Assembly: GCA_963739455.1 (NCBI GenBank)
Contig: CAVUAK010000001.1
Coordinates: 224,001-288,000, forward strand
Source of the DNA: an uncultured Gemmatimonadales bacterium
Lineage (GTDB): Bacteria > Gemmatimonadota > Gemmatimonadetes > Gemmatimonadales > GWC2-71-9
Reading direction: 5' to 3'
DNA: 64,000 nucleotides
Positions 4,651-29,567 of the stretch are shown piece by piece. The position numbers were made by a program, and so were the translations under genes. Each line of letters starts with the position of its first letter. Within the stretch, counting starts at the first letter, position 1. The notes under the pieces were generated by a model, which was given only the letters and a program-made list of their open reading frames with translations, had not been told where the DNA came from and searched no databases.

Positions 4651-4710
4651 GTGACGATCCAGTCACGACACCACCATCAATCCGTCCCAGTCCCGTCCGA
4701 GTCGCGTCAC
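4651..4710 (+). promoter_or_regulatory. Array of Pho-box-like half-sites with 11-bp period upstream of the plcP-like gene
   Basis: GTGAC 4651, GTCAC 4662, ACCAT 4673, GTCCC 4684, GTCCG 4695, GTCAC 4706. The PhoB half-site is GTCAY repeated every 11 bp. Confidence 0.55.
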
Positions 4711-4785
4711 TTCAGCATTTTCCCGTTGTGCCCGCCCCATCCTCTTCATAACATTGCCCCATGACGCCAGCAGCCGGGGTGCACG

Positions 4786-7573: not shown

Positions 7574-7669
7574 GTACCCTTCGCCCAACCCACACACGAC
7601 GCGCATGCAGCGGTGACAGCAGCCTCCGAAGTTTCCCGGATACTGGTTTACCCAATCCCGGAGCTTCCC

Positions 7670-9229: not shown

Positions 9230-9234
9230 TCCCG

Positions 9235-12043: not shown

Positions 12044-13210
12044 CTACGCCCTCCGCATCAGCGAAAGCACCAGCTCACTGAGGATGAGCAACACGATGAT
12101 GATCTCGAGCGCTTGCGACCGCGCCGCCACCGCCATGTCGTTCAGTGCCTCGGCCATGGTGCGGGCCAGCATCAGCTTGCGCTCCACACTCTGCCGCCAT
12201 GCCGGTTCATTCATCACGTCGAGGACAGCCCGGTAAATCCTCGCCAGGTAGATGTCATCAGTAATGCGCAGCGCGTTGGTTGCCTGCTCGATCAGGCGCG
12301 AGGTCTTTGCGGTGAGCTGGTGGACTTCCGTCACCAGCCGCTGCGAGCGGCGCGCGAACAGCGCGCCCGGGCCTACACCCATCGCCGTGGCACGGGCTTC
12401 GAGTTGCGGGACCCGGCTTTCCAGGATCGCATCGTACACTTCGAGTTCCAGCAGCTGCGCATTGGCAAACTCGATCAGGAGCTCGACGTCGTGGTCGGTG
12501 GCGTCCGGCTCCACCACAAGAGCGGCGTCGTAGGCAACGATGGTGCGGTCCAGCTGCGTGTATCGAAAGTCTCGCCCGAGCAGGCTCTCGCGCGCCGCCG
12601 GCGCCAGCGCCCGCGGCTCGCCGAGCAGAAGGCGTGGGATATCCGATTCGCCAAAGTCCCCCTCTGGTTCGCGGCTGAGCCGCAGGATGGCATACTCCTC
12701 GTTCACCGGGCTTCGATCCGGCTCCTGGATCGCCGGACCCAGCAATGACTCCACGCTGCTCACGAGCGGATCACTCCAACCCCGTGTGTCAGCCCCGTGG
12801 ATCATGTCGGCAATCACGGGTACGAGCTCCGCCCAGCTCTGCTCCGGTTTCCAGGTCAGGATGCGTCGACAGCTCACCACGCCGAAGTCGTAAACCGCGA
12901 CATGCAGCGCCTCCGACCACCCTGAGGGAGCGGCTGCCCCGGATAGGCTGGGCAGCTCCTCCGAGAAGTCGAGAATCAGGGGTGGTACCGGGATCCGGAT
13001 GCTTCCCTTGGCCTCGTTGCGACGCAGCACCGGACGACGACCCGCCCGCCCCGCCGAGCGTATCCGTGCCTCGGCGATCGCAAGATCAATGCGTTCGCCA
13101 ACGTCAACCAGCTGTGTCAGGGTGAGCATTCCCGGCGGGGCGATGGGCATCGTGTACGATAGCCACTCAGCCGAACTTGCGCGCCGGAGCCGAATCACGC
13201 CGCCCGTCAT
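12044..13210 (-). CDS. RMD1/DUF155-like protein with C-terminal TM helix
   Basis: YDFGVVS, EFANAQLLELEVYD, DIYLARIY and LEIIIVLLILSE motifs. Confidence 0.65.
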   Translation of the reverse strand: MTGGVIRLRRASSAEWLSYTMPIAPPGMLTLTQLVDVGERIDLAIAEARIRSAGRAGRRPVLRRNEAKGSIRIPVPPLILDFSEELPSLSGAAAPSGWSEALHVAVYDFGVVSCRRILTWKPEQSWAELVPVIADMIHGADTRGWSDPLVSSVESLLGPAIQEPDRSPVNEEYAILRLSREPEGDFGESDIPRLLLGEPRALAPAARESLLGRDFRYTQLDRTIVAYDAALVVEPDATDHDVELLIEFANAQLLELEVYDAILESRVPQLEARATAMGVGPGALFARRSQRLVTEVHQLTAKTSRLIEQATNALRITDDIYLARIYRAVLDVMNEPAWRQSVERKLMLARTMAEALNDMAVAARSQALEIIIVLLILSELVLSLMRRA

Positions 13211-13213: not shown

Positions 13214-13591
13214 CTAGTCGCTCCCACCGATCAGGACTGAGATCTCCATGGGCGAGATGCCCTCGCTCGGGAGGTCGAGCGTGGGCGCGTGACACACGTG
13301 GTTGACCTTGACCCAATACCTGCCGGCCGGCACGTTGCGGATCGTCACCATGTAGGAATGCTCCTCCAGGTTGGCGGCGCTCTCCGCACCCTCGTAGCGC
13401 GCCACCACATGCAGGTTGATCTTCTGCCGATGGCGGTTCGCGTGTGCGCTCAACGCCCATCGGCCCATCCCCACGCTGAGGCTGCCGCGCACCACCACCG
13501 TTCCTGGTCCACCTTCCGCTCCCACACTCGGACGCCCAGTCGCTGCTGCGCCAGTCTGGCTCTGGAACTCCGTCGGAAGCCGGTGCGCCAT
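13214..13591 (-). CDS. Hypothetical small beta-sandwich protein
   Basis: Coupled to the upstream gene (TAATG). Contains YMVTIRNVPAGRYWVKVNH. Confidence 0.55.
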   Translation of the reverse strand: MAHRLPTEFQSQTGAAATGRPSVGAEGGPGTVVVRGSLSVGMGRWALSAHANRHRQKINLHVVARYEGAESAANLEEHSYMVTIRNVPAGRYWVKVNHVCHAPTLDLPSEGISPMEISVLIGGSD

Positions 13592-15696
13592 TACCAGCCC
13601 ACCGTCCAGCCGGTGAACCAGGGAACCACGTTGCCTTCGATCGGGGCACCACCCGTGTAGGTGAGCGTCGGATCGAAGAAGCCGGTGATCGGAATCGGTC
13701 CGCCGGTCGATGCCGCGCTACCGGGCATTGGACGGAAGTCGGGCGTGAGCGTCAGGAAGGGTGCGGCAAGGCCGGGGTTAGTCACGATATTGCCGAGTGA
13801 CGGGGTCAGGGCGTACGCCGCCTCATCGATGCAGTCCACATCGTCTGAGAAGTTGGGCTGTCCCTGGAAGAAGATGCTTGCCCGTACCGTGAGGCTGTCC
13901 GCTGTAAGCGCACAGCCTTGTGCCCCATCGATCTGCAGGCCGGCGCCGGAGGTGCGCAGGATGACCGCATTGCTGATCAACCCGCCGGTGCCGTGGCCAA
14001 GCAGCAGTCCCGGCGCATTCGTCTCCGTCCCCAGCGCGCCAATCACCGTGAGGTTGTAGATCGTCGGATACGTGAGGCGACGCGCCGAAGCGCTTCCGTC
14101 CGCGTTGCTCCCCAGCACCGCTGGACTGGCCGAGGCAGGCTGCTGCACGATCACGTTCTGGGCTCGGCCCTGCCATCCGTTGCTCCACCGGAGCCCGGTG
14201 CCAAGGTTGCCGGTCAGGAGCACCGCCCGGAATTCCGCACGGCCGCCCGACACGTACATCCCGTCACCGAAACTGTTGGCCACCTGGATGGTGTCCATGA
14301 CGGTGCCGCTGCCCACGCCAAGCAGCGACAGGCCCGGCGTGATGACGCCCTCTGCCGTCGCCATGCCGGCATTCTCGATCCTCACGTATCGCAGGGTGCC
14401 ACTGTTGAACCCGTCCTGGCATCCACCGTAGTAGCCAAGGTTCCCCGGCGACGCTTTCTGCGGACAGGGCTCGATCTCGTTTCCACTGCTCATGCCGTCA
14501 TTGTTGAGCACTCCAGGACCGTTGATGTTGAGCCCGCCCCAGCAGCCGGGATGCATTGATGGCGTGCAGCTGAATACCACCGGCTGCAGTCGGGTGCCGA
14601 TCGCGACGATCTTCGCGCCCCGCAGGACGGCCAGCCTGCCGGCGGTCGCGGTCTGCCCCTCGATGCGCGTCCCGGCCTCGATCGTGAGCGTCACACCGTT
14701 CTCCACGCTCACCACGCCATCGAGTTCGTAGACCGTGTCGCGTCGGAGCGTGCGATCCGCACTGATGACGCCGCTGAGTACCGCACGCAGGCCCGGCACC
14801 ACCCGGCCCGGAATCGGTCGTCCCACAATTGGTGCCGGCTGGCCCACCGACGCATTCGCGATCGCAAGGGCATCGAGCAGGTTGATCACGAACGTTCCGT
14901 TCAGCTCCCGGCCCGGCGGATTCGCATCGTCGGGCTCGCCAAGGCCTGGCAGGTTGGCCGGCTCGACGTTGGCCGCTATGACGTTGTCATTGGCCGCATT
15001 GGTGATCAGCGACTGGCTCCCGACGCCAACGTCCGCCGCCGCCAGGGCATCGAGCAGGGTGATGGAGCCGTCCAGCGTCGCGTCGCCGTAGATGGTGCCG
15101 GCGCCGGCCACGAACACGATCGACCTGGCCGGCGCCCGCTCACCGAGTTCCACTGCCCAGGCGTTGATGTCCATCATCCGGCCATCGGACCGCGGCAGTC
15201 CATTGTCCACCTCGGTCCCACCATGCACCACCAGGACGACAAGCCGTCCATCCGCCCCGACGCTCAGCGTCGGGCCCAGCCGCAGCGCGTCCGCGTAGCC
15301 CGGCGCGAGCACCCGGAAGGTCAGGACCACCATCCGCTCGGGGAGTGGCCCCAGCCCGAAAGTGATCAGCCGAAGCCGGGAGGACGGTGAGTCCTGCGTT
15401 GCTGCCATGGTGTAGCTGCCGGGTTCCACGATCTGGCCAGCGTACGCGAGCTGGCGCGAATCGAAGAGCAAGTCGGCTTCGAGCCCGCGCAGCCCACGGT
15501 CGAGGCCCCGCGCGCGAATCGCGACGGCGACCACCGCACCGACCGGCGCGGCGCGATCGGACACGACCACTTCGAGCGCAGGGGCATCCGAGGTGGCGTC
15601 AGGCTCCGGCGGCACATCCCGTCCACAACTCGCGAGTGCTATCGCGAGCAGCAGCGAGGCCAACACGCGCGGCGCGGCCAGCGCAGAATGCCTCAC
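13591..15696 (-). CDS. Lipoprotein A: cohesin-like + dockerin-like + beta-helix domain
   Basis: Lipobox LASC, then LRGLEADLLFDSRQLAY...LTFRVL, then YGDATLDGSITLLDALAAADVGVG...INLLDALAIANASVG, then YYGG...NSGTLRYVRIENAG, ending WFTGW. Confidence 0.75.
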   Translation of the reverse strand: MRHSALAAPRVLASLLLAIALASCGRDVPPEPDATSDAPALEVVVSDRAAPVGAVVAVAIRARGLDRGLRGLEADLLFDSRQLAYAGQIVEPGSYTMAATQDSPSSRLRLITFGLGPLPERMVVLTFRVLAPGYADALRLGPTLSVGADGRLVVLVVHGGTEVDNGLPRSDGRMMDINAWAVELGERAPARSIVFVAGAGTIYGDATLDGSITLLDALAAADVGVGSQSLITNAANDNVIAANVEPANLPGLGEPDDANPPGRELNGTFVINLLDALAIANASVGQPAPIVGRPIPGRVVPGLRAVLSGVISADRTLRRDTVYELDGVVSVENGVTLTIEAGTRIEGQTATAGRLAVLRGAKIVAIGTRLQPVVFSCTPSMHPGCWGGLNINGPGVLNNDGMSSGNEIEPCPQKASPGNLGYYGGCQDGFNSGTLRYVRIENAGMATAEGVITPGLSLLGVGSGTVMDTIQVANSFGDGMYVSGGRAEFRAVLLTGNLGTGLRWSNGWQGRAQNVIVQQPASASPAVLGSNADGSASARRLTYPTIYNLTVIGALGTETNAPGLLLGHGTGGLISNAVILRTSGAGLQIDGAQGCALTADSLTVRASIFFQGQPNFSDDVDCIDEAAYALTPSLGNIVTNPGLAAPFLTLTPDFRPMPGSAASTGGPIPITGFFDPTLTYTGGAPIEGNVVPWFTGWTVGW

Positions 15697-16994
15697 TGGA
15701 ACGTGTCCATGTCTTCGATCCGGGTGAAATTGCCCCGCGCATCCACCACATACAGGATGATGCCGTACACGTCGGTGTACGCGATGCTGTTGCCTAGTGG
15801 CAGGTCGGGCACCTGCGTGCCGAGATAGCCGGGTGTGTTGTAGATGCCGATGTCCTGCTTGCCATCGGGCGGGCCCAGGATCCCGTCCCGCAGCACCGCC
15901 GCCACGAAGAAGCCCACCTGGTCGCCCTCCGGATCCGCAACGGAGAAGTGCGTCTTGAGTACGTCTGGGCCGTTCAGCACCGCGTTGAAATCGCTGACAC
16001 CCGGGCGTGATCCCGCCTCGTCCCGGAGCGGCTGCTCCACCGTCACCGACGTATTGCCGAAGTTGTCGTCCACCCGGAGCGAAGCGCAGCGCCCGGCGAG
16101 CTCTGCGTCCGGCAGCCCGACCTCGAACGCCCCGATGATCGTCGCCGAGTCCGCGAACCCCGTGCGCCCATCGAGCAGCCCGCCCCGCACGCGCACACCG
16201 CCAGGCAGCACTGACGCACCGTGGCAGTCCGTGATGTCCCAGTAGTAGTTGGTCAGGTTTCGGTTGGGTGAGGTGACCCGCGCAATGAAGACGCCCGCCC
16301 CGTCATGGTACGATGGGTTGAACGACAGGATGGAGGGACGCTGCGTCGGCGACGAGCAGATGGCGTTGAAGCTGACGTCGGTCCCGCCATCCTCGCTCAC
16401 GGTCACCGTGCGTGACGAACCGCCGTCGTTCACGAAGGTGCAGTTGCTGCTCACGTGCTGCAGCGAGACGGTATACGTGCCTGCCGGAAGCTCAGGGAGC
16501 AGTACCGCGGAGTTTGCGCCGACCACTCCATGTGCCTCGGCGGCGGCCCCACTCACCTGCCACACATACATGCTGTCGTTCGCGACACCAGTGGTGTTGA
16601 CGGTGATGCTCAGCGACGCACCGCACACCACGAAGAACCGGCTCAGTGCCGTGTTGGTGCCCTCCGGAATGACGAGCACATCCGTCGTGCCGTACCGGCT
16701 GCGGCATTGTGTCGGAAGGTCCTGCAGTTCGATCGAGTAGGTTGACGGCGCTACCGAGAGGATGATGGTGTCGGTCGGCGCCGCCGTGATCGTGGTGTCG
16801 AGCATCTTGAGGGTGGAAAGGTCGCGCACGTGATACCGGTACTGTTGTGCCAGCTGGGTACCCTGCGGCTTTGCCACGATGGCCAGGTACGGTGGTCCTG
16901 CCGATGATGGCTCTGCCGCGTTGCTGCACGCAGCAAGTGCCCCGGCTGTGAAAAGCAGCCGGAGCACCCGCCACATACACACTGCCTTGTTCAA
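15693..16994 (-). CDS. Lipoprotein E with repeated Cys-containing Ig-like modules
   Basis: Lipobox LAAC, and modules YSIELQDLPTQC...FVVC and YTVSLQHVSSNC...FNAIC. It overlaps gene A (GTGA). Confidence 0.7.
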   Translation of the reverse strand: MNKAVCMWRVLRLLFTAGALAACSNAAEPSSAGPPYLAIVAKPQGTQLAQQYRYHVRDLSTLKMLDTTITAAPTDTIILSVAPSTYSIELQDLPTQCRSRYGTTDVLVIPEGTNTALSRFFVVCGASLSITVNTTGVANDSMYVWQVSGAAAEAHGVVGANSAVLLPELPAGTYTVSLQHVSSNCTFVNDGGSSRTVTVSEDGGTDVSFNAICSSPTQRPSILSFNPSYHDGAGVFIARVTSPNRNLTNYYWDITDCHGASVLPGGVRVRGGLLDGRTGFADSATIIGAFEVGLPDAELAGRCASLRVDDNFGNTSVTVEQPLRDEAGSRPGVSDFNAVLNGPDVLKTHFSVADPEGDQVGFFVAAVLRDGILGPPDGKQDIGIYNTPGYLGTQVPDLPLGNSIAYTDVYGIILYVVDARGNFTRIEDMDTFQ

Positions 16995-17006
16995 CTGCGC
17001 ACTACC

Positions 17007-19430
17007 CTACCGGCCGGTCGGGGTGGACCAGCCCGTCCACCATGGCAGGCTGCCCGGGCCGGTCGCGCCCAGGTAGGTCGCCGAGACGTCGAAGAAACCG
17101 TCGTTGGGTGGCGTGGCACCGGTTGCCGTCGCCGCGGCACCGATCGGCGTGTAGTTCGCGATCGTCGTGAACGGCGACGCGATGAAGCTCGTCGTCGCAC
17201 CCGCCGGAACCGCCATGGCATTGCTCGGGTAGGTGATGGTGCCAGCCAGCCCGTAACCGGGGAGGAGGCTGTAGTCCTGCGTCCCGCCGGTGTACCCGAT
17301 CCACGTCGCTTCCAGGTCGCTGTTAGCGGCGTTCACCGTGTACTGACCACAGACCGTGCCAGGCGTCGGCAGGACTGGGTCCCCGGTGTCACCATCGCCG
17401 TTCGCCGAGTTGCCGAAGAACATGGCGTTGCGGAACGTCAGCGAATCCTTGGCGATCACCTTGCAGATATCCTGCGACAGCACCAGGCCGGCAGTTGCGC
17501 CAGCGGGCTGGTCGATATCGAGACCCGCCTTCCAGCCACCGACCAGGAAGTTGCGCAGCGTCCCGCCGGTGTTCTGGCGCAGGATGACACCCGCCGTAAC
17601 GGAGGAGGTGGTCGGGTCCGGCGCGCCCAGCAGCGTGAAGTTGTAGAGCGTCGGCGCCGAACGCGGCGCTGCTTCCGGGTCGGTCCCGTTGCCGTCGATG
17701 CCGAAGTTGTCGGCCTCGATGCCACGATCACAGCCGGTCTGGCAGCCGCGCACGATCACGAACTGCGCCTTGCCCCGGTAGCCAGCCACCCAGTCGAATC
17801 CGTCATCCTGGGTGCGGTTGATCACGAGGTGCTTCACGTTCACGGTGCCGCCGAAGAACTCGACGCCGTCATCCAGGCCGTTGTCGGTGCTTACGTAGTC
17901 GATGGTCGTTCCACTGCCGATGCCCTGCAGCGTGAGCGAGTTGCGCTCGTTCGTTGCCGTGAAGCGCGTACCGGCGTTGACGATGCGAACGTACGTCAGG
18001 CTGCCGCTGTTGTCGGCCGGGTCGTTGCCGCCGTAGGGGCCGGTGTTGCCCTCACCGGTCGGGCAGATGCCGCCCGAGCCCGCACCGCGACCGGCCTGGT
18101 CGCCCGGAACCGTCACGGCCGGACAGGCGGAGCCGTTGTTCACCGGCGCCAATCCGTTGATGTAGACACCGCCGAAGCAGCCGGCGCCGAACGGGCCACC
18201 GTTGGTGGCCGAGGCCACCGGCTCATAGCAGTTGAACTCGACCGGCTTGAGGAACGTGCCATTCGCGAAGATCTGCGAGTTGCGGTCGATCACCAGCGTG
18301 TTGCTGTCCGACAGCACCAGAGTGCCCGGCCCGATCGTGAGCTTGGCGCCGGTGACGTTGCAGACCGGGTTGGCGCCGGTCGGCTTCGGGATCACCCACA
18401 CATGCGTGGAATCCCACGTGGTGTTCACCGTGATCGGGCAGCTCACCACCTGCTCCGAGGCCAGCGCGCCGCGGCCGGCGATCTGCTTGCCGGCCACCGG
18501 ACGGGTGCCCGGGGCCACCGCTTCGTTCGCAATTTCGAGCGCGTCGATCAGGTTGATCGTGCCCGAGTTCGGGTTGCTGCAGCTCTCGAGGCCGGGACGG
18601 CAGGCACCAGCGAGGCCACCGTTGGTCGGCTGCACGTTCGCCGCCACCACCAGGTCCTTGCGTGATGCACTTCCGATGGCTCCATCAGTGCCCTGGATCG
18701 CGAACAGGTTGCCCACCGCGACGTTGCTGACATCGAGCGCATCGGCGAGGGACACGCCGCCGCTCAGGTTCACGTCACCATACTTGAGGTTGACGAGTCC
18801 CAGGTCGCCCGGGTTGGCGCTGATCGGGCCGGTCGGCCGGTAGCCGGCGTCGAGCAGCCCCTGCCAGTCCTGCACGGTGAGGATGCGGGCCGACTCCGGC
18901 ACGCTGAAGTTCCCCACTCGCACTTCCGGATCCACGTTCGCTCGCTTCACGTACAGCAGCTGCTGGCCTGCGGTGCCACCGATCTCATAGTCGAACTTGA
19001 GGCTCGCCGCGTAGTTGGCACGCGTCACTTCGAACAACAGCACCGATGCGTGCTCCGGCAATCCCGCCGGGTTCAGCACGCCCAGCCGCAGGCTGCCCTC
19101 ACGCGCCGCGGAGGCGTTGACGATCGTCGCCGTCGAGCGATCCTCCGGCTGGCCCACATAGCGGAGCGCCGCAGGACTGAAATGCAACGTGCCCTGCAGG
19201 GCGCCCAGCGACTTCCCGTCGATCTTCCCGACGCGAAGGGCCACGGCCACGCGCTGGCCGACCGGCGTATTCAGGTTCGAAACCTCGACCGCGAGGTTCA
19301 CATCCTGGCTTGACTCGGGCACCGCCGCCGGCTCGCTCGGCACGCCATGGTCGCTGTTACAGGCAGCGGCCAGGACGAGTCCGGCGGCGACCAGCGCGCG
19401 CTCGAATCGTGAGTTGAGGTGCAATCGCAT
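17007..19430 (-). CDS. Lipoprotein B: cohesin-like + dockerin-like + beta-helix domain (paralog of A)
   Basis: Lipobox AAAC, then LGALQGTLHFSPAALRY...LLFEVT, then YGDVNLSGGVSLADALDVSNVAVG...GTINLIDALEIANEAV, then YGGNDPADNSGSLTYVRI, DDGVEFFGGTVN, DDGFDW and GIEADN, ending WWTGW. Confidence 0.8.
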   Translation of the reverse strand: MRLHLNSRFERALVAAGLVLAAACNSDHGVPSEPAAVPESSQDVNLAVEVSNLNTPVGQRVAVALRVGKIDGKSLGALQGTLHFSPAALRYVGQPEDRSTATIVNASAAREGSLRLGVLNPAGLPEHASVLLFEVTRANYAASLKFDYEIGGTAGQQLLYVKRANVDPEVRVGNFSVPESARILTVQDWQGLLDAGYRPTGPISANPGDLGLVNLKYGDVNLSGGVSLADALDVSNVAVGNLFAIQGTDGAIGSASRKDLVVAANVQPTNGGLAGACRPGLESCSNPNSGTINLIDALEIANEAVAPGTRPVAGKQIAGRGALASEQVVSCPITVNTTWDSTHVWVIPKPTGANPVCNVTGAKLTIGPGTLVLSDSNTLVIDRNSQIFANGTFLKPVEFNCYEPVASATNGGPFGAGCFGGVYINGLAPVNNGSACPAVTVPGDQAGRGAGSGGICPTGEGNTGPYGGNDPADNSGSLTYVRIVNAGTRFTATNERNSLTLQGIGSGTTIDYVSTDNGLDDGVEFFGGTVNVKHLVINRTQDDGFDWVAGYRGKAQFVIVRGCQTGCDRGIEADNFGIDGNGTDPEAAPRSAPTLYNFTLLGAPDPTTSSVTAGVILRQNTGGTLRNFLVGGWKAGLDIDQPAGATAGLVLSQDICKVIAKDSLTFRNAMFFGNSANGDGDTGDPVLPTPGTVCGQYTVNAANSDLEATWIGYTGGTQDYSLLPGYGLAGTITYPSNAMAVPAGATTSFIASPFTTIANYTPIGAAATATGATPPNDGFFDVSATYLGATGPGSLPWWTGWSTPTGR

Positions 19431-19505
19431 GGATCACGTTCTCCAGTCTTCGGGTGATTCCGGACCCGGCCAGTGCTCCTGGCCGGGCCGGAATGAACTG
19501 TTGGT

Positions 19506-21446
19506 TCAGGGCGTGGTCGGGATCGTGGTCGACCCGTCGTTGCCCTGCACGAAGGCGCTCACGTTGATCGTGCCCGTGGTGATCGCGTTGTAGATGTTGA
19601 CGTCGAAGGCCGAGAGCGCGGCGGTGGTGGCCAGCGATGCACCCGGGAGCAGCTCGAACGTGCATGAGCCGATCGGGATGTTGGCGCTGTTGGCGACACC
19701 AGTGCCTGCCTGGACCGCACCCGGCACCAGCACGCCCGGGGTGGCGGTACCGACGGTGAAGATCGTCCACGCCCGGCCCGGCGCGCAGTTGGACGTCGGG
19801 TCGTTGTCGAGGATCTGGAGGCGCGACGTCGGGTAGGTCGAGTTGAACTGGATCGTGTTCAACCGGTCCGTCGCCGCTTCCGTCGCGTCGTTGCGCGTGC
19901 TCATGTCGATGCGCCACGAGATCGTGATCAGCTGCCGCGCCTGGCCCAGCGCGTTGGTGCCCGCCGTAACCGGGCTCCACGTCGCGTACGCCTGGTAGAA
20001 TGACGGGGCCGGTGAGCAGGTCACCGCGAATGACACCGTCTGCGCCGCCGCGCCGGTGAGCCCGCTGTAGTTGGCCGCCGTCGCACCGGTGAAGCTGGTC
20101 GGCGTGCAGCTGGCCGGAATGCCGGTCACCGACACCGTGCCGGCGCCGCCCGGGGCGACGTACTGCACCGCGCTGCTGAAGGCACCAGCGGCGCTCGGGC
20201 TGATCGTCACCGGCGGAAGGCCGGCACCGGTCGGCGTGATCGTCACCGACGCGCCCGCGAGCGACGGCGCCACGGCCAGGCCACCGGCCAGCGTGACGTT
20301 GATCGTGCCGTTGACGGTGCCGGTCAGGGCGCTGCAGGTGACGCTGACGTCGGGCAGGGAAACAGTGCCGGCAGTGCTGATCGCCGGGACCGCGACGCCA
20401 GCCGGGGCAACGCAGCCGCTCGGCAGGTTGGTCAGCGTCAGCGTGCGCGCCGGACCAGCCGTCACATTGTTGATGATGAGGTTGTACGCCGGGGCGGCCG
20501 CGTTCGTGCTGACGCCGCTGAAGCCGCCGGGGGCGATCGTGCCCGTGGCGCCGGTGATCACGCCGATCTGCGGGGAAGACACCCGTGCCTGCACCGTCGC
20601 CGTCACCGCCGGGCCGCTGTTCTGCAGGTCGGCCGCGGTGAGGATCAGGGAACGGAAGTTGGAAACCGTCGCGTCGATGATGTAGCCGACCGTCTGGGTC
20701 GAGCTGCTCGCCAGCGGCCCGAGCGGGGCGCCGAAGGCCTCGTAGCGATAGCAGTCGTTCGCCGCTGCCGCTGCGCAATCGCTGTCGTTGAACCAGTTCC
20801 ACGGCGCGCCGTTGAGCGCCGCGGTACCGTCGCCATTCCAGTCATCGCTCGTGGTCACTTCGCCCCGGTTCGGCATCACGATGATCACTTCGTTCTGGCT
20901 GCCGGTGGCGCCGCCAGTGGTCGTGGTCACGTTGTTGGCGAAGGGGAAGCTGTAGATAGCCTGTGCGGTGAGGCTCGGCGGGGTCGGAAATGCCACGTTG
21001 CTGTTGCCGCCTGGACGGACCAGCTGCACCCCGCTCAGCTTGTTGGTCAGGGTGATGTCGAACGTCACCCGGATCTTGCCCGGGGGGGCGTTCACGCCCG
21101 GCAGGCCGGCGTTGAAGTTGGAGGCCGTGATGTCAATGACGTCACCACCCTGCAGGCCGGCGTTGATGTCCTTCGACACGCCACGACCCTTCCCGGCTGA
21201 CCCGATGCTCCCGCTCAATCCCGTCACGGGCGCCGACACCTTCACCGTCTTCTTCGCGACGTTCACGTCGAACACAAACGCTGCCTGGTTGAACTGCGGA
21301 TTCGGTGCCGGGTCACCCGGAACGTCCGGGCCGGCGGGCGAATCGGACTTCGCGCTGCAAGCGCCGAGTCCGAGTGCGGCGGCGGTGACCAGCATGGTCA
21401 TCGTGCGCGCGTTGACGCCCCGGTTGAGGGGGAAACCGAGAAACAT
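19506..21446 (-). CDS. Lipoprotein C: Ig-like modules and C-terminal cohesin-like domain
   Basis: AGGAGG RBS before ATG 21446, lipobox LGAC, LTNLPSGC and VTGIPASC modules, and C-terminal LNTIQFNSTYPTSRLQI...IGSCTFELL. Confidence 0.7.
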   Translation of the reverse strand: MFLGFPLNRGVNARTMTMLVTAAALGLGACSAKSDSPAGPDVPGDPAPNPQFNQAAFVFDVNVAKKTVKVSAPVTGLSGSIGSAGKGRGVSKDINAGLQGGDVIDITASNFNAGLPGVNAPPGKIRVTFDITLTNKLSGVQLVRPGGNSNVAFPTPPSLTAQAIYSFPFANNVTTTTGGATGSQNEVIIVMPNRGEVTTSDDWNGDGTAALNGAPWNWFNDSDCAAAAANDCYRYEAFGAPLGPLASSSTQTVGYIIDATVSNFRSLILTAADLQNSGPAVTATVQARVSSPQIGVITGATGTIAPGGFSGVSTNAAAPAYNLIINNVTAGPARTLTLTNLPSGCVAPAGVAVPAISTAGTVSLPDVSVTCSALTGTVNGTINVTLAGGLAVAPSLAGASVTITPTGAGLPPVTISPSAAGAFSSAVQYVAPGGAGTVSVTGIPASCTPTSFTGATAANYSGLTGAAAQTVSFAVTCSPAPSFYQAYATWSPVTAGTNALGQARQLITISWRIDMSTRNDATEAATDRLNTIQFNSTYPTSRLQILDNDPTSNCAPGRAWTIFTVGTATPGVLVPGAVQAGTGVANSANIPIGSCTFELLPGASLATTAALSAFDVNIYNAITTGTINVSAFVQGNDGSTTIPTTP

Positions 21447-21568
21447 GCGACCTCCTGAAGTTGGTGGGCTGGCGACTGCGGTTACCGCAGCGACCACAAG
21501 ATCCCGCCCACCACACACAGCACGGTGATTCCTCTGTAGCACGTTGATAAGCGACGGAGGCGCAATCG

Positions 21569-21585
21569 GTGACACCGTTGTGATG
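21569..21585 (-). promoter_or_regulatory. Possible Pho box upstream of gene C
   Basis: The minus strand reads CATCACAACGGTGTCAC, with ATCAC and GTCAC 11 bp apart. Confidence 0.4.
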
Positions 21586-21589
21586 TCGC

Positions 21590-23995
21590 TCACGGCGCGG
21601 TGAACGTTCCCTCGACCACGCGCGTGAGCGAGCCATAGCTGAAATCACCAGTCGCCGGCGTGCCTAGCAGCGCGCCGAGGATGCTTTGTGTCGTTGTCGT
21701 GGTACCTGGCGCACCAATGACATCGAACTTCACCCGTGCGATCGGTACCACACTCTGGGAGTTCTGCGCGGTCACCGATCCGCTGAAGCTGATGTCACCC
21801 TGCGGCGCGTTCGTGAAGTTGAACCCGCCCGGTGTACCCGAATCGATGTTGAGCGCGAAGAAGCGAAGCACCGCCGGGTCCCACTTGAGGCGCACCACCG
21901 CCCACGCGGCGAGCGCCTCCGGCCCCGGGGTCTGCGGGATATCAGTGGTCAGGTCGAACAGGATGGTCAGCGTCACCTGGCCGTTCACTACCGGCCCGAA
22001 GGACGATGACCAGGTGAAGGGTTGCCCGCCGCCACCTCCTCCGTCGGAGATGGTGACGCCGGCCGTGGCCGAGTTCTGGGCGCCGGAGTTGTCAGTCACC
22101 GTGAGCGTCGCGGTGTACGAGCCCGCCGCGGCATAGGCATGCGGGGCGACAGCGCCACTGCCCGTGGCACCGTCACCGAAGTTCCAGGCATATGACACGA
22201 TGCTGCCGTCGGGATCGCTCGACGCCGAGCCATCGAACGAAATCGACGCCCCGACTGACCCGGCATACGGGCCGCCCGGACGTGCGATCGGTGGCAGGTT
22301 GCCTCCACCGCCGCCCTCGCTGATCGTCGCCGTCGTCGTCGCCGTCGAGCTGGCACCGAGGTTGTCGGTTACCCGCAGCGACACCGTGAACGGACTGCCG
22401 CTGGTGCTGGTGTACGTATGGCTCGGCGTTGGCCCGATCGCGGTGCCACCGTCGCCGAACGACCACTCATAGGTCGCAATCGTTCCGTCGGGATCCGACG
22501 ATCCCGCGCCGTTGAACGCGATCGGCGATCCCACGGTCCCGCTGTACGGACCACCCGGTGCCGCCACCGGCGGCTGGTTCGTGCTGCCGCCACCAGTCCC
22601 CACCGTCAGCGTCGCTTCCTGCTTGCGCACCTGATCCGAGATGTTGAGCACCTCAGTCGGGTTTGCGGCGGTGTTCGCACTGACCTCGATGCCGGTCGTC
22701 TGCGTCGTGAACGTGGCGCCGTTGGCGGCTCCCGGGAGCACGGTGAAGTACAGCCTTGCCACGGTCACCAGCCCCGGCACGCCAAGGCCCGCCTTCACGC
22801 CGCCCGGGATGACCTGACCCGGGGTTGCCGTGCCGACGACGAAGATCGTGTTCAGCTGGCCCGCCAGCGCACTGTCGTACTGCACCACCGCCTGGTCGAA
22901 GGTGATCGTCGCCTGGGCCGTCGTGGCCCGCTTGTCCGGCTCGGCGCGCAGGTCGAGTTGCACCAGGAGCTCAACCACCGAACCCGCCGGTGATGTCGCC
23001 GGAGTGAAGGTGCTCGTCAGGATGAACGGCTTGTTGCCCGCGTCGGGATCAGTGCAGGTCACCGTGAAGGTGCGTTCGGTGGTCACGCCCGCCGTCACCG
23101 GTACGTCATCCAGCGTGGCCCCACCTTCCACCGTGCAGTTGTCCGGCACCTCCTGCAGCAGCACCTGGTAGCTGCCCGGCCGGAGCCCCGTCAGCAACTC
23201 CGTGCTGTTGGCGCTCGATGTCGTCTGCTCGATCACCACCGCCTGCAGTGAATCGGTGATCCCGACCACCTTGAGGTGATAGTTGGCCGGCAGGTCGTCG
23301 CCCGTCGTCGCGATCGTGAGCTTGAGGTCGCCCAGCGACGGATCGCTGCACGACACGAGGTAGGACACCGCCTGCACCGTGTTGAGCCCCTGGTCCGTGA
23401 CGGTGACATTCCGCTGAAGGCTGTCGACCGGGACACAGTTGGGCGCGAGATCGCCCAGGACGATGTGATACGCGCCCGGCCGGAGCGGCGACACGGTCCT
23501 GGTGCCGGTAGCATCCAGCTGCACGACCGCGGTGTCCGTGGCACTGCTGATGTGCGCCTCGAACCCGTCCGGGTCGAGCGCCACGGCCGGTCCCTGGGTC
23601 TTCGTCTGGATCGTGATGCCCGGCAGCGGCGGGGTGGACGTTCCCGACACCGTGGTGAAGCCGAGGCTCGAGCCCTGGCGATCGATGACCTCGAGCCGGT
23701 AGCCGTAACGCGTGTCCGGCCGGACTGCCTGGTCGAGGTATTCGCTTTGGCTGCGATTGACGTTGTCTGCCAGCAGGTCGAATGGCCCGGTGAGGTTTTC
23801 CCTGCGGTACAGCCGGTAGAAGCTGGCGTCGTCCACCGGGGTCCACCGCACTCGGACTGACCTGAGGTTGAGGGCCTCCGCCGAGAACGGCATCGCGCTG
23901 GGTTCGGGCGCGCTGTCTTCGCCGTGGCATCCCGCAGCGACTAGCAGCAGCAGGCCGACGGTGTACCGGGCAATCGAGCGGAGGCTAGAACGCAT
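21590..23995 (-). CDS. Lipoprotein D, scaffoldin-like: FN3 + 2 Ig-like + cohesin-like + 2 PKD + cohesin-like
   Basis: Lipobox AAGC, FN3 (VRVRWTP...YRLYR...PDTRYGYRL), two PKD repeats (NxPPxAxPGGPY...SSDPDG.I..YxWxFGDG), and cohesin-like ATITFDQAVVQY...VARLYFTVL and LKWDPAVLRF...IARVKFDVI. Confidence 0.8.
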   Translation of the reverse strand: MRSSLRSIARYTVGLLLLVAAGCHGEDSAPEPSAMPFSAEALNLRSVRVRWTPVDDASFYRLYRRENLTGPFDLLADNVNRSQSEYLDQAVRPDTRYGYRLEVIDRQGSSLGFTTVSGTSTPPLPGITIQTKTQGPAVALDPDGFEAHISSATDTAVVQLDATGTRTVSPLRPGAYHIVLGDLAPNCVPVDSLQRNVTVTDQGLNTVQAVSYLVSCSDPSLGDLKLTIATTGDDLPANYHLKVVGITDSLQAVVIEQTTSSANSTELLTGLRPGSYQVLLQEVPDNCTVEGGATLDDVPVTAGVTTERTFTVTCTDPDAGNKPFILTSTFTPATSPAGSVVELLVQLDLRAEPDKRATTAQATITFDQAVVQYDSALAGQLNTIFVVGTATPGQVIPGGVKAGLGVPGLVTVARLYFTVLPGAANGATFTTQTTGIEVSANTAANPTEVLNISDQVRKQEATLTVGTGGGSTNQPPVAAPGGPYSGTVGSPIAFNGAGSSDPDGTIATYEWSFGDGGTAIGPTPSHTYTSTSGSPFTVSLRVTDNLGASSTATTTATISEGGGGGNLPPIARPGGPYAGSVGASISFDGSASSDPDGSIVSYAWNFGDGATGSGAVAPHAYAAAGSYTATLTVTDNSGAQNSATAGVTISDGGGGGGQPFTWSSSFGPVVNGQVTLTILFDLTTDIPQTPGPEALAAWAVVRLKWDPAVLRFFALNIDSGTPGGFNFTNAPQGDISFSGSVTAQNSQSVVPIARVKFDVIGAPGTTTTTQSILGALLGTPATGDFSYGSLTRVVEGTFTAP

Positions 23996-26693
23996 AGTTC
24001 ACCGCCACGTTGAGGTCGACGCCGTAGCGCACCGACCCGGCGATGCGCTGTGCGTCGGAGGCACTCTCGTCATCGGTTTCCAGCAGCACCAGCGCGTTGG
24101 TCAGGTTTTTTCCATCGATCGAGAGCTGCCAGTGCTTGGACAGCCCGAACACGACCTTCGCGTCCAGCGTCTCGTGACCAACCTCGATGTAGTTGGGCCC
24201 CTGGGTCTGCCCGCTCAGCGCGCCGTAGCGGAACACCCGGTTCCCGAACCAGTTGAAGAGCAGCGACGCCGTGATGTTGGGCCGCTCCGCCTGGTAGATG
24301 AAGTCGATGTTGATGAGGTAGGGTGACTGACCCTGGAACTGCAGGTCGGGCGAGAACACGCCCAGGCTGTCCGGCAGCGTAATCCGCGACCGCAGCAGAG
24401 TGACGTTGGCCTGCAGCAGCAGCCCGCGCAGTGCATGGGAAATGAACCCGAGTGACTTCTGGGCCTCGAGCTCGATGCCAATCGTCGAGCCCCGCGTCGC
24501 GTTGACCGGCAGCGACACGAACTCGCCGCTCTGGTATTGCACCACCGTCACGATCGGGTTGTCGAACTGCTTGTAGAAAACGCTCGCCGAGAGCTGCTCA
24601 CCCGCGCCCGGGTAGGTCTCGAACCGGAGGTCATAGTTGAGGATCGTTCCCGGCTCCAGCGCCGGGTTGCCGATCTCGAAGAGGCCGCCCACCACCGGCG
24701 GATAGCCGCCCGGGGCGAACTCCCTGAGCTCCGGACGCACGACCGTCTGCGAGAACGCCGCGCGAAGGTTGCTCGCCGGCGACACCGCCCACGTCAGGTT
24801 GACGGAGGGAAGCCAGTCGGTACTCGCCTTCGAGGGAACGCTCCCTGCATCGGTGGTATCCGCCAGGCGCACCGTGGCGTTCCACTGCTCCATCCGCAGG
24901 CCTCCCACGAAGCGAAGGCGCGGGAACACCTCCATGTCCGCCATCACGAACGCGGCGAAGACATCGTCGGTGCCGGAGTAGGGAAAGATGATGCCGCTGG
25001 TGGGAACGATCTGGATGAGGCCGTCGCTGCTGGCGCCCATGTTTTCCGGCGCGAACGCCTGTTCCGGCGGCAGCAGGCGCGTGGAAAGCGGAGCTCCGCC
25101 GGTGATCATCTGGTAGGCGGCGCCGTCCAGGTTGCGGTTCGTGAACCGCCCCAGCGCACCCACCTTGAATTCCGCGTCCCCCTCCTCACGCAGGGTGAAG
25201 GGCGTCGCGTACGAGAAGTCGCCCTGCGTGGTGATGTCGGTGAAGTCGTAGTTGTACCGGAAATTGGGAAACTGGTCCAGCAGCTGGAATCCCGGCCCGC
25301 CGGCCTGTGACACATAGGTCAGCTGGCGGTTGTCGTTGTCGCTCCGTCCTGCCCGGCCATACCCGGCCCGCCACTCCAGCCGCCCGTTGGGTAGCAGGTG
25401 CTCCCCCTCGACCAGGCCCTGGTAGATGAACCGCTCGATGAAGAACATCTGGTAGAGCTTGATCGCCGCGTCGTTCGGGTCGATGCGGACGCCCGAGCCG
25501 AGCGTGGAAGTGCTTGTCGATCCCGTGGTGTAGAAATTCTTGAACGACAGCTTGTTGCGGGAGCCAAGCCGGTAACTGAAGTTCGCGATCGCGCCGAAGT
25601 CGGCCAGCGCGGAGGCCACGTTGTAGGTGTACGCCCCCGAGCCCAGTGTGCTGTACAGGTCCGGCACGTACGTCCGCGCCGCCGAGGTGTTGAGCGCCAG
25701 TGAAAGGCCGAAGACATCCGACTGGCCGATGTCGAAGCTTGTGCCGAACGACGCCTGCAGCGATGCCGCGGGCAGCACGGTGCTGCTCGCCGGGGTCCAC
25801 ACATTCGCGAATCCCTGCGAGAAGACCACCGGATCCGGGTTGGGCGGCGGCGTGGCACCCGCACCGCGCCAGCCTGGAAAGGGAACGTCCTCGAAGGTGC
25901 CGTTGCTGTTGTAGCCACCCTTCACCTGGAAGGTGAACTCCGTCTCCTCCGGGAACTCCTTGGTGCGGATGTCTGCCGATCCGCCGGCAAAGTCGCCCGG
26001 CCGGTCGGGCGTGGCCGTCTTCTGCACCACGAGTGCCTCGAGCAACGACGACGGGAAGGCATTGAGCGGTACCAGCTGCTTGTCCGGCTCGGGGCTCGCC
26101 ACCTCGATGCCGTTCAGTACCGACGTGCTGTATCGCTCCGTGAGTCCACGAATGACGACCTTGTCGGCCAGCACTGCAACGCCGGAGACCCGGGTGATCG
26201 CAGCACCCGCGTCCGAGTCCGGTGTCTTGCTCATGAACTCGGCGCTCACGCCGTCACTCTCCACCGCAGAGTTCTTCTGTTCCGAGAGCAGCCCCGCGTC
26301 AGATGACGCCGCCTCGGGCAACTCGGCCGCGACCGCGAGCTCCTCGAGCTGCACTGTGGCCGTGTTGAGCGCCATGGTGATCACCGTCGTCTGGCCCGCC
26401 GTGACCCGCACGCTGTCCACCCGCGCCGGCTTGAATCCGAGCTGCCGCCCCGTCACCGAGTAGACACCCACCGGTAGTGCCACCGACCGGAAGCGGCCGT
26501 CGAGGTCGGACTCCGCCTTGCCGAGTTGTCCGGTTACCTCGATGGTCACTCCCTGCAGTGGCTTGCCGGAGCCGCCATCCACCACGCGTCCCGCAATCCT
26601 CCCGGTGGCAGCCGGCGCCTGTGCCGCAGCCACACGCGCCAGCCCCAGGCCGATGATCACGAGCCCGGTGAAGACCCGACATGTCACGCGCAT
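23985..26693 (-). CDS. TonB-dependent receptor with N-terminal carboxypeptidase-regulatory-like domain
   Basis: Signal peptide, GRIAGRVVDG, plug TPDSDAGAAITRVSG...IRGLTERY, RPELRE...GNPALEP, KNLTN, and C-terminal Phe (VNYAF). Confidence 0.9.
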   Translation of the reverse strand: MRVTCRVFTGLVIIGLGLARVAAAQAPAATGRIAGRVVDGGSGKPLQGVTIEVTGQLGKAESDLDGRFRSVALPVGVYSVTGRQLGFKPARVDSVRVTAGQTTVITMALNTATVQLEELAVAAELPEAASSDAGLLSEQKNSAVESDGVSAEFMSKTPDSDAGAAITRVSGVAVLADKVVIRGLTERYSTSVLNGIEVASPEPDKQLVPLNAFPSSLLEALVVQKTATPDRPGDFAGGSADIRTKEFPEETEFTFQVKGGYNSNGTFEDVPFPGWRGAGATPPPNPDPVVFSQGFANVWTPASSTVLPAASLQASFGTSFDIGQSDVFGLSLALNTSAARTYVPDLYSTLGSGAYTYNVASALADFGAIANFSYRLGSRNKLSFKNFYTTGSTSTSTLGSGVRIDPNDAAIKLYQMFFIERFIYQGLVEGEHLLPNGRLEWRAGYGRAGRSDNDNRQLTYVSQAGGPGFQLLDQFPNFRYNYDFTDITTQGDFSYATPFTLREEGDAEFKVGALGRFTNRNLDGAAYQMITGGAPLSTRLLPPEQAFAPENMGASSDGLIQIVPTSGIIFPYSGTDDVFAAFVMADMEVFPRLRFVGGLRMEQWNATVRLADTTDAGSVPSKASTDWLPSVNLTWAVSPASNLRAAFSQTVVRPELREFAPGGYPPVVGGLFEIGNPALEPGTILNYDLRFETYPGAGEQLSASVFYKQFDNPIVTVVQYQSGEFVSLPVNATRGSTIGIELEAQKSLGFISHALRGLLLQANVTLLRSRITLPDSLGVFSPDLQFQGQSPYLINIDFIYQAERPNITASLLFNWFGNRVFRYGALSGQTQGPNYIEVGHETLDAKVVFGLSKHWQLSIDGKNLTNALVLLETDDESASDAQRIAGSVRYGVDLNVAVNYAF

Positions 26694-27703
26694 CAAGGCT
26701 GGCTCGACGCGGCGGCGCTCACCTGGGTGGCAAAGGGCTCCGGCTTGGCTGCCGACTCCGGCCACTCACCGCGAAGGAAGGTGGCCGCGGCGGTATCGAA
26801 TGCCGGTTCCGCCCCCAGCCAGGGGAAGCCGAACGCCCCGGCGATGAACGCGACACGTGCGTTCGGCAGGTGCTGCGCCCAGCGGGTCGCCGCAGCCTCC
26901 ACCATCTCGTTGCCCGATCCCTCGATCACCAGCACCGGTGCCGGGACGTCATTCAGCGCCAGCCGCCAGCTCCAATAGCCCAGCTTCGACAGCACCGCGT
27001 AGTTGATGCGCTCCACCTGCTCGATGCGGTCGTCGGGTGCGCTGCACACGCTCCTGCCCACCGTCCGTGTGTCGGCGCGTGGATCCTTGAGCGTGCCGTA
27101 GAAGAACGTCGGCCACACCACCCGGCATGCACGCGACACACTCTCCCCACGCCGCAGTTGCCCCAGCATCTGGGCCTCTCGGCCACGTCCGGTGGTATCG
27201 GTGCGCTGCATGCCGATCTCAAAGGCGAAGGAGGGGTGTACCACGAAGGGACTGACCATCAGGATGCGAGATACCCGATCCGGATGGCGTATGGCATAGA
27301 GAGCGCCCACCGCTGCACCCCAGTGGTGCCCGACCAGCGTGAGTCGCGAAAGGCCGAAGTGCTGACGCACCGATTCGAGGTCGGCCACGTCGGAATCGGG
27401 CGAGAGGGCAAGCGAGTCGGTCACGGCATCCGACCGCCCGCGTCCCCGCATGTCGTAGTAGATCAGTGTCCGCCCCGCCTGCAGCGCCTGGAGCGGTGCC
27501 TCGAGGTACACATGATCCACACCGGGCCCGCCATGCAGCACGACCACCGTGTCCGGCCCCGATCCAAGCGCGACGTATGACAGTCGAATCCCGCTCGCGG
27601 TTGTGACCGTTCCCTGTTCCCTGTTCCCTGTTCCCTTGGCGGTACACGCGGTTCCCGCCCATACCACGGCACACACGATGGACAGCACGCGTAGCGGACT
27701 CAT
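26693..27703 (-). CDS. Alpha/beta-hydrolase-fold lipoprotein (proline iminopeptidase-like), catalytic residues apparently lost
   Basis: VLHGGPG and YDMRGRGRS are present, but the nucleophile elbow reads GHHWG and the expected C-terminal His region reads GAFGFPWL. Its stop overlaps the receptor start (TGATG). Confidence 0.8.
   Translation of the reverse strand: MSPLRVLSIVCAVVWAGTACTAKGTGNREQGTVTTASGIRLSYVALGSGPDTVVVLHGGPGVDHVYLEAPLQALQAGRTLIYYDMRGRGRSDAVTDSLALSPDSDVADLESVRQHFGLSRLTLVGHHWGAAVGALYAIRHPDRVSRILMVSPFVVHPSFAFEIGMQRTDTTGRGREAQMLGQLRRGESVSRACRVVWPTFFYGTLKDPRADTRTVGRSVCSAPDDRIEQVERINYAVLSKLGYWSWRLALNDVPAPVLVIEGSGNEMVEAAATRWAQHLPNARVAFIAGAFGFPWLGAEPAFDTAAATFLRGEWPESAAKPEPFATQVSAAASSQP
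27609..27634. repeat. (CCTGTTC)n heptamer array inside coding sequence (encodes GTGNREQGT)
   Basis: GTTCCCTGTTCCCTGTTCCCTGTTCCC lies just after the lipoprotein Cys codon. Confidence 0.85.
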
Positions 27704-27841
27704 TGAATTCCCGGCTGACATGGAGAACGTCGGAAGAGCGCGCCAAGTATCCCCCGCCGCGGCTGCATCAAGTGCAGCGCGCGGTATCGTCCTTGGCACG
27801 TCTGGGTATCGTGTTCGTTACTTGACGGAAGGCGTACGGAG

Positions 27842-29485: not shown

Positions 29486-29567
29486 ACACTCCGCGGGCGC
29501 GAGTTGGCGGGTAAGGTCCGCCGTCCGCGTCACGGATCAATGATGGTACCGCAACGTTCGTCTATCT

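Follow-up and report, generated by a model that had tools for sequence, protein, structure and literature searches.

A conserved Gemmatimonadales operon with cohesin and dockerin modules beside a TonB-dependent receptor: a predicted outer-membrane uptake complex

Cohesins and dockerins are the plug-and-socket parts of cellulosomes, and cohesin–dockerin pairs are the best-known natural protein "snap fasteners". Peer et al. are said to have reported in 2009 that non-cellulosomal cohesins and dockerins are widespread; to our knowledge, the role of these modules outside cellulosomes is mostly unknown. Here, a stretch of 64,000 nucleotides (nt) from an uncultured Gemmatimonadales bacterium (GCA_963739455.1, CAVUAK010000001.1, positions 224,001–288,000 of the forward strand) was analyzed, and this whole stretch is called the window below. 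Between approximately positions 13,214 and 27,799, its minus strand carries a gene cluster for a TonB-dependent receptor (TBDR) and five lipoproteins, named D, C, B, E, and A, with cohesin and dockerin modules. In the preferred reading, to which we assign a probability of roughly 0.55, the cluster is a conserved Gemmatimonadales outer-membrane uptake operon, and its cohesin and dockerin modules would link the lipoproteins in one predicted complex around the TBDR.

The SusCD utilisomes, which are encoded in the polysaccharide utilization loci (PULs) of Bacteroidota, combine a TonB-dependent transporter with several surface lipoproteins in one operon, and some of these lipoproteins have Ig-like spacers carrying a binding domain. 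ElpS (CC0170) of Caulobacter crescentus is an outer-membrane lipoprotein that is induced by phosphate starvation and encoded beside the TBDR CC0171, and it is conserved in Shewanella and Bacteroides (Le Blastier et al. 2010, PMC2996285). BT4056 of Bacteroides thetaiotaomicron, a distant relative of ElpS, is a pectin-lyase-superfamily lipoprotein that is located near its transporter (BT4055) in 621 genera and for which a role as a lid was predicted (Price et al. 2023, bioRxiv 10.1101/2023.03.17.533168). Both reports are cited here from excerpts.

The cluster encodes, in order along the minus strand, a hydrolase-like lipoprotein (hyd), the TBDR, the lipoproteins D, C, B, E, and A, and an open reading frame (ORF) of 125 amino acids (aa). 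The order from hyd to A had been proposed in an earlier reading of this DNA, referred to here as the original prediction, and was confirmed by the gene calls. Lipobox signal peptides are present in all five proteins D, C, B, E, and A. The features, with coordinates in the window, are as follows.

26693–27799, minus strand: hyd, an alpha/beta-hydrolase-fold lipoprotein, proline-iminopeptidase-like, with His in place of the nucleophile Ser (GHHWG); Pfam Abhydrolase_1, 74.3 bits.
23985–26765, minus strand: the TBDR, with a CarboxypepD_reg domain, a plug, and a beta-barrel (Pfam).
21590–23995, minus strand: lipoprotein D, with FN3, two Ig-like domains, cohesin 1, PKD, PKD, and cohesin 2 (Pfam and orthologues).
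22592–23038, minus strand: cohesin 1 of D (aa 320–468), from Pfam Cohesin (24.9 bits) and alignment A3.
21593–22027, minus strand: cohesin 2 of D (aa 657–801), from hhalign against D cohesin 1.
19506–21593, minus strand: lipoprotein C, with a conserved N-terminal domain (aa 85–330), an Ig/CarboxypepD_reg-like middle part, and a C-terminal cohesin.
19509–19994, minus strand: the cohesin of C (aa 534–695), from hhalign.
17007–19430, minus strand: lipoprotein B, with a cohesin, a dockerin, and Beta_helix_4.
18915–19313, minus strand: the cohesin of B (aa 40–172), from the fold match of its model.
18465–18845, minus strand: the dockerin-like module of B (aa 196–322), with a Dockerin_1 match of 17.1 bits (expectation value, E, 0.006) and of the same family as the A dockerin.
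17010–18464, minus strand: the beta-helix domain of B (PF28492 Beta_helix_4), from Pfam labels of homologues and the ESM Atlas.
15693–16994, minus strand: lipoprotein E, with two Ig-like domains and a C-terminal half without a recognized family.
13591–15696, minus strand: lipoprotein A, a paralogue of B (tblastn), with a cohesin, a dockerin, and Beta_helix_4.
15208–15591, minus strand: the cohesin of A (aa 36–163), which aligns with the B cohesin (hhalign).
14794–15138, minus strand: the dockerin module of A (aa 187–301), with two F-hand repeats and a conserved insert of ~27 residues, from its model and fold match.
13594–14793, minus strand: the beta-helix domain of A, from homology to B; the Pfam Beta_helix match is weak (E 0.053).
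13214–13591, minus strand: the 125-aa ORF.

As in ElpS/CC0171 and BT4055/BT4056, as the excerpts present them, a lipoprotein is encoded beside a TBDR, and wherever a locus extends to the TBDR, A or B shares its operon. The likeness to ElpS/CC0171 includes the receptor, as the TBDR of the window is nearest to the Xanthomonas/Caulobacter-type subfamily (TIGR01782 TonB-Xanth-Caul, 248.4 bits, which is under the cut-off of 310). In contrast, cohesin and dockerin modules and extra scaffold lipoproteins are present here and are not mentioned in the excerpts on ElpS and BT4056. Among the 120 matches listed for the paralogue P0018, which were unnamed, "hypothetical", or from Gemmatimonadota, there were no named relatives of ElpS or BT4056. 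The difference from SusCD is that no SusD is found here, the receptor falls outside the SusC family (TIGR04056 was matched only at E 0.053), and assembly would use cohesin–dockerin modules. According to the original prediction, no described system with this organization was known. This holds in part: the pair of a receptor and a beta-helix lipoprotein has already been described (ElpS/CC0171 and BT4055/BT4056), but the cohesin–dockerin layer appears to be undescribed. Full-text literature searches, judged from their result listings, found no description of such a cohesin–dockerin/TBDR operon.

The clostridial cellulosomes (Clostridium thermocellum type I, PDB 1ohz/2ccl; ScaB–ScaC, 4uyp/4uyq) are built from the same two folds, with the A dockerin matched to 2ccl_B and the B cohesin matched to 1ohz_A at Z 10.2. 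They share with the operon a duplicated F-hand dockerin and the presence of several cohesins on one protein, which here is D. However, the host here is a diderm, and the proteins have lipid anchors and not SLH or sortase attachment. No carbohydrate-active enzyme (CAZyme) or carbohydrate-binding module (CBM) was found, cohesins outnumber dockerins, and the modules are encoded in one operon with a TBDR. Moreover, the dockerin is internal and stands directly after a cohesin of the same chain, and its two repeats are split by the insert. In the Pfam scan of hyd, the TBDR, D, C, B, E, and A, no glycoside hydrolase, lyase, esterase, or CBM family was matched, which agrees with the original prediction in that no recognizable glycoside hydrolase is present. 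Because no CAZyme or CBM was found, the reading of the locus as a cellulosome was rejected; the cargo here is a Beta_helix_4 domain. The best matches of the B cohesin were with Clostridium perfringens NagJ/NagH (2w1n, 2o4e, 2ozn) and NanJ (2vo8) and with Archaeoglobus fulgidus (2xdh), at Z values of 12.6, 12.2, 10.6, and 10.4. These cohesins also work outside cellulose degradation, but NagJ/NagH and NanJ join secreted glycoside hydrolases of a monoderm and the A. fulgidus cohesin stands alone in an archaeon, whereas here the modules belong to predicted outer-membrane lipoproteins of a transporter operon.

All five cohesin-like domains, namely, the two in D and those in C, B, and A, are true cohesins, as identified by Pfam, profile–profile comparison, or fold. 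The gathering cut-off of Pfam Cohesin (PF00963) is 24.1 bits. D cohesin 1 (aa 329–453) reaches 24.9 bits when it is scanned alone and 19.9 bits within the whole protein. Three of the 15 D orthologues are over the cut-off (35.9, 25.7, and 46.9 bits; the 25.7-bit match, in L041, is with the C-terminal domain), and four more score 19.8–22.4 bits. Two of 14 B orthologues are also over it (26.1 and 25.6 bits), with three more at 17.7–20.2 bits, and none of the seven A orthologues has a Pfam Cohesin match. The A, B, C, and D cohesin 2 domains of the window fall under the cut-off, with the best score in B (15.7 bits) and no match in A. They are connected to D cohesin 1 by profile comparison with hhalign, which aligned it with D cohesin 2 (99.2%, E 8e-20), with the C cohesin (98.4%, E 4e-15), and with the N-terminal domains of A/B (92.2%, E 6e-7); the C cohesin also aligned with D cohesin 2 (91%, E 1e-6). 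A search of the PDB with the D cohesin 2 profile gave 0 matches. Among D orthologues, the number of cohesins varies from 1 to 3.

The fold test covered the B cohesin, and the other four are assigned by comparison of sequences. In an AlphaFold2 model of B aa 40–322, the predicted local distance difference test score (pLDDT) was above 90 over the first 133 residues, which form the cohesin, and the predicted template modeling score (pTM) was 0.78. Foldseek gave 63 PDB matches at E<=1e-3 for this cohesin, the best at E 1.2e-7, and only cohesins were present among the matches listed. In VIA, the top 19 of 48,161 chains were cohesins (Z 12.6–7.9), and pilins and other beta-sandwiches appeared from Z 7.5. 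The non-cellulosomal cohesins of C. perfringens NagJ and NanJ lead this ranking, which also includes the Archaeoglobus cohesin.

The dockerin-like modules of A and B are true but divergent dockerins, A by its fold and B by its membership of the same family. In an alignment of 48 modules, both repeats carry the calcium-loop pattern, with D/N or E/N at position 1, N/T/D or D/N at position 3, and S/D/N or T/S at position 5. Position 8 is V/I, D12 is invariant in both repeats of 48/48 modules, and residues D/N/E/S/T occupy positions 1, 3, 5, 9, and 12. A near-identical helix, A-L-x-I/V-A-N-x-A-V-G-N, comes after each loop. The model of the A dockerin (pLDDT 81.8, pTM 0.75) has helices at residues 28–39 and 87–97, directly after the loops; in the dockerin part of the B model, pLDDT ranges from 40 to 83. 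When the A dockerin was compared using VIA, 16 of 48,161 chains were found at Z>=2, of which the top 14 were dockerins aligned over the whole target (Z 7.2–2.7), and unrelated chains appeared from Z 2.2. The best match, 2ccl_B, had a Z of 7.2 and a root-mean-square deviation of 1.9 Å over 62/62 residues at 23% identity. In Foldseek, ranks 1–33 were dockerins (27 rows listed), led by 4uyq_B (E 0.015, probability 0.99, template modeling score 0.74), and none was at E<=1e-3.

Profile searches point in the same direction. Dockerins made up 8 of the 10 PDB matches of the dockerin profile; all of them were weak (best E 0.019), and the top match was an unrelated phage protein. A search of 1.84 billion proteins with the same profile brought up six multi-Dockerin_1 proteins (126–282 bits of Pfam Dockerin_1) at E values between 1e-14 and 4e-11, summed over 5–11 repeats. 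When one such true multi-dockerin protein (P0157) was compared using hhalign, both repeats aligned and the insert was gapped out (E 1e-4, probability 58%). In the genome of the window, the profile finds A and B only. The original prediction had named two dockerin-like domains, in A and B, and had called for a check of whether the domains are generic Ig or EF-hand folds. Both Foldseek and VIA placed cohesins (for B) and dockerins (for A) on top, and the two dockerins are borne out in their divergent form. A generic Ig or EF-hand reading was rejected, since the fold searches are led by cohesins and dockerins and no EF-hand protein is among the 16 chains at Z>=2.

In A and B, the cohesin and the dockerin precede a beta-helix. 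The two proteins are 30% identical (tblastn, E 4e-51), and their beta-helix is PF28492 Beta_helix_4, described as "pectate-lyase like" (precomputed labels on homologues; ESM Atlas 0.95 to Beta_helix_4 clusters). The pair of modules behaves as a cassette: among the 150 best representatives, a cohesin precedes the dockerin on one chain in 126, and the remaining 24 are either fragments or genuine multi-dockerin proteins. An invariant Trp is present in the linker helix of the cassette. Elsewhere, the cassette carries Peptidase_S8, RHS, RCC1, DUF11, and PKD cargo (25 of 150 scanned). Individual fusions of subtilase (Peptidase_S8), RHS-repeat, or RCC1-repeat parts to an N-terminal cassette are P0119, P0123, P0147, P0148, P0153, and P0164.

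The operon is conserved among relatives. The sample consisted of 401 Gemmatimonadota genomes, which are related and non-independent, so counts are given without a statistic. The B beta-helix has matches in 177 of these genomes, and few of the matches include the N-terminal part. In 15 related loci, each with up to 20 kb fetched around it, the order TBDR-D-C-B-E and its strand are kept. D, C, and B are present in 15/15 and the TBDR and lipoprotein E in 14/15 each, with the two misses at contig ends; A then follows in 8/15. A pattern search of species-representative genomes gave 21 loci, all from Gemmatimonadota metagenome-assembled genomes, of which six contigs are the same as in the earlier set, and the order is kept wherever the contig reaches. 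The dockerin profile finds 22/401 genomes, in two families of one order (16/166 and 5/93 vs. 0/141 elsewhere), including one of the five other genomes of the same genus. The D-cohesin profile finds 37/401 genomes, that is, 20 of the 22 with a dockerin vs. 17 of the 379 without one, and those 17 are weaker. There are 18 strong full-length D-cohesin matches (E<=1e-24), all in dockerin genomes. The genes co-occur in other genomes, both in the order kept in the related loci and in the joint presence of dockerin and D-type cohesin. One genome with the operon, G103, is complete and consists of a single contig. In five relatives, an extra C-like gene is located after A (L047 4578–5870; L048 1705–3159; L057 11609–13048; L060 11796–12929; L066 11593–12909); it is without a cohesin in L047 and L048, the two in which the C-terminus was examined.

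The following mechanism is proposed. The beta-helix proteins A and B would be the surface partners of the receptor, as a lid or ligand binder, similar to what has been proposed for ElpS/CC0171 and BT4055/BT4056. Their dockerins, with calcium, would plug into the cohesins of D or C or into each other's. Through such docking, D, C, and perhaps lipoprotein E, which are long and flexible, could be kept at the transporter, in the way that surface glycan-binding proteins are held around SusCD. The result would be a multi-protein nutrient-capture complex at the TBDR. A broader version, which we offer as a tentative possibility, is that the cassette is a portable self-assembly handle for diderm surface lipoproteins, which would build a modular cellulosome-like capture complex with exchangeable cargo on a TonB-dependent importer.

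A number of observations weigh against the preferred reading. The dockerins diverge from the known family. With a gathering cut-off of 22.9 bits, Pfam Dockerin_1 (PF00404) matches only the first repeat of each module, below the cut-off (B 17.1 bits, A 14.3 bits); no A/B orthologue has a match at E<=0.01 (0/21), and neither A nor B was recovered when the whole genome was searched for the Dockerin_1 family. The conserved insert that splits the repeats, R-D-x-V-I-A-G-N-V-x-P-x-N-L-P-G-L-G-E-x-x-D-x-x-P-P-G, is absent from canonical dockerins, and because of it the module is not a compact unit of 60–70 residues with a short inter-repeat linker. The numbers are also unbalanced: the operon encodes five cohesins and two dockerins, and in loci that have B but not A the ratio is three or four to one. 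Each lipoprotein brings a lipid anchor of its own and does not need docking to be anchored, and the fixed cassette and the single-chain pTM of 0.78 would be compatible with binding in cis as well. BT4056 is likened to A and B by description (pectin-lyase superfamily vs. pectate-lyase-like Beta_helix_4, as given in the excerpts). In 14 other loci, the genes flanking the operon (5'-nucleotidase, HAD, M20, EAL-HDOD, TPR, and others) give no recurrent substrate clue beyond hyd and the neighboring g563, which is described below. Finally, the modules and the operon are observed, but binding between cohesin and dockerin, exposure at the surface, and a function as a lid are inferences.

The original prediction went further and cast D and C as lipid-anchored scaffolds that display A and B. 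This part was not supported, as A and B have their own lipobox and their own cohesin and do not need D and C as anchors. Since the cohesin and dockerin form a fixed cassette, binding in cis or reciprocally fits at least as well as display by D and C. In this alternative, the partner of the A or B dockerin is the cohesin next to it in the chain or, in a reciprocal dimer, that of another copy, and the cassette serves as a rigid stalk or dimerization handle for the beta-helix; the cohesins of D and C would then bind something else, such as the CarboxypepD_reg domain of the receptor, the substrate, or the cell envelope. The presence of both modules in one chain in most representatives, the joining of the cassette to unrelated cargo (Peptidase_S8, RHS, RCC1, DUF11), the invariant Trp of the linker helix, and the excess of cohesins over dockerins in every locus are all consistent with it. 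So is the pTM of the single-chain model, read as a fixed mutual arrangement, though only the cohesin half of that model is confident; moreover, the model comes from a 23-row alignment, and the contacts within it are not inspectable. The co-occurrence of D-type cohesins with the dockerin in 20/22 genomes, always in the same operon, would be hard to explain if the two were unrelated. This alternative is the main rival of the preferred reading, although we consider it rather unlikely. A complex prediction with three chains (D cohesin 1, A cohesin, and A dockerin, with the dockerin as the partner) gave 0.05, 0.34, and 0.33 in its runs and 0.00, 0.01, and, with chain 1 replaced, 0.19 in its controls; this three-chain design differs from the calibration of the tool, and the scores are taken neither for nor against binding.

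It is also conceivable that the modules are decorative, that is, spacers and calcium-stabilized linkers of long surface lipoproteins without specific partners, a role that many of the dispersed non-cellulosomal copies may also have. The divergence of the dockerin, which is under the Pfam cut-off, the position of the cohesins among spacer domains (FN3, PKD, Ig, and CarboxypepD_reg), and the varying number of cohesins in D are in line with this idea. However, across 48 sequences, both repeats show strong conservation of the calcium-loop positions and of the helix motif. The dockerin and D-type cohesin also closely co-occur, and no copy of the dockerin module was detected in this genome outside A and B. 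We consider a purely decorative role unlikely. More improbable still is an assembly on the other side of the membrane, in which the lipoproteins would face the periplasm, from the inner leaflet of the outer membrane or from the inner membrane, and the complex would receive the substrate from the TBDR. Lipoprotein export to the surface has so far not been shown for Gemmatimonadota, which leaves room for such a location, but cell-surface proteins are where FN3, PKD, and cohesin domains typically occur. The reading of the operon as one for outer-membrane uptake, with the lipoproteins joined around the TBDR, is preferred over these alternatives.

The receptor and several of the other domains can be described further. 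In Pfam, the TBDR scores 103.3 bits for TonB_dep_Rec_b-barrel, 58.7 for CarboxypepD_reg, and 30 for Plug. The hydrolase-like lipoprotein matches TIGR01250 at 78.7 bits, under the family cut-off, and its nucleophile position is H or N in 6/6 orthologues. Calling it a "dead hydrolase", as had been performed before, is therefore fair with respect to a serine mechanism. The spacer domains that had been named in the same account are also present: two PKD domains in D are strong in Pfam, FN3 is weak in D here and above the cut-off in five D orthologues, and Ig-like domains are found in D and in lipoprotein E. The middle region of D is related to the N-terminal half of lipoprotein E, which consists of two Ig-like domains. 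Lipoprotein E has no Pfam match and a weak match to an NCBIfam adhesin domain (NF045619, E 0.0028). Lipoprotein C also has no Pfam match, and its N-terminal domain remains below 0.9 in the ESM Atlas (best 0.87, to unnamed clusters). No NCBIfam match was obtained for A, B, C, the 125-aa ORF, the 388-aa protein described below, g563, the beta-helix parts, or P0018. Sequence searches of the PDB gave 0 matches for the whole of B, and the whole of D matched PKD and FN3 domains only.

The original prediction had also claimed overlapping stop/start junctions, and four can be read in the sequence: hyd/TBDR (TGATG, 1 nt), TBDR/D (11 nt), lipoproteins E/A (GTGA, 4 nt), and A/125-aa ORF (TAATG, 1 nt). 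The TBDR likely starts at M25 (26693). For C, an ATG at 21446 behind AGGAGG is a likelier start than the GTG at 21593; an overlap of D and C is doubtful because it requires the GTG start. The C/B and B/E junctions have gaps and no overlap. The 75-base gap between C and B (19431–19505) contains a G+C-rich inverted repeat, TTCCGGCCCGGCC...GGCCGGGTCCGGAA, directly before the ribosome-binding site of B; judging by its sequence, it may form an intercistronic hairpin. The gene run is closed by a 388-aa protein without a Pfam family and with a C-terminal hydrophobic helix (12044–13210, minus strand). It has 81% identity to a protein at the same position in a genome of the same genus (L046), and a 36% identical copy is located upstream of the receptor in L072.

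A second locus of the same genome, outside the window (L007 3933–8649, G000:C1:342932–347648), encodes a paralogous TBDR followed by an FN3-Beta_helix_4 lipoprotein of 552 aa, which has neither cohesin nor dockerin. Since this locus has the pair without the cassette, the receptor and beta-helix protein can be regarded as the core of the system and the cohesin–dockerin layer as an addition. The receptor of the second locus is split over two frames (3933–6095 and 5809–6798), probably by a frameshift or an assembly error.

Upstream of hyd, one further lipoprotein gene is present.

27842–29533, minus strand: g563, a 563-aa lipoprotein with HEFQH...WLNEGLSH, a gluzincin-type (M1-like) zinc-peptidase motif, from its sequence.

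Its family is weakly matched by Pfam Peptidase_MA_2 (E 0.03 to 0.005, in four of six proteins scanned). Homologues of g563 are located near the operon in 6/15 loci, with varying position and orientation, and hyd was called in 6/15. On the opposite strand, 4.4 kb from the operon, there is a gene for a PhoX-like protein (Pfam PhoX, 50.5 bits), directly followed by one for a di-haem cytochrome c peroxidase (CCP_MauG, 108.7 bits; together 7613–11043, plus strand). EAL-HDOD genes flank the operon in two relatives, on both sides in L048 (360–1700 and 18492–19706) and in L051 (2968–4167).

The substrate is probably not a plant polysaccharide. A weak lead toward phosphorus compounds is suggested by the analogy with ElpS, and the PhoX-like gene also hints at phosphorus. 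A second weak lead, toward peptides or proteins, comes from the HEXXH lipoprotein and the Ser-less S33-like lipoprotein that accompany the operon and from the subtilases that the cassette carries elsewhere.

The operon is small, conserved, and closed, and it holds five cohesins and the only two dockerins of the genome, with a TBDR as their neighbor. As both partners are encoded in one closed operon, with ten pairwise combinations, the function of non-cellulosomal pairs becomes directly testable. If the cassette is indeed a portable handle, this would be the first cellulosome-style architecture that is coupled to outer-membrane transport. If the pairs bind, they would reveal a way in which a diderm gathers several surface lipoproteins around a transporter that has no SusD-type lid, and a divergent class of dockerins with an inserted loop would be added to the orthogonal protein connectors.

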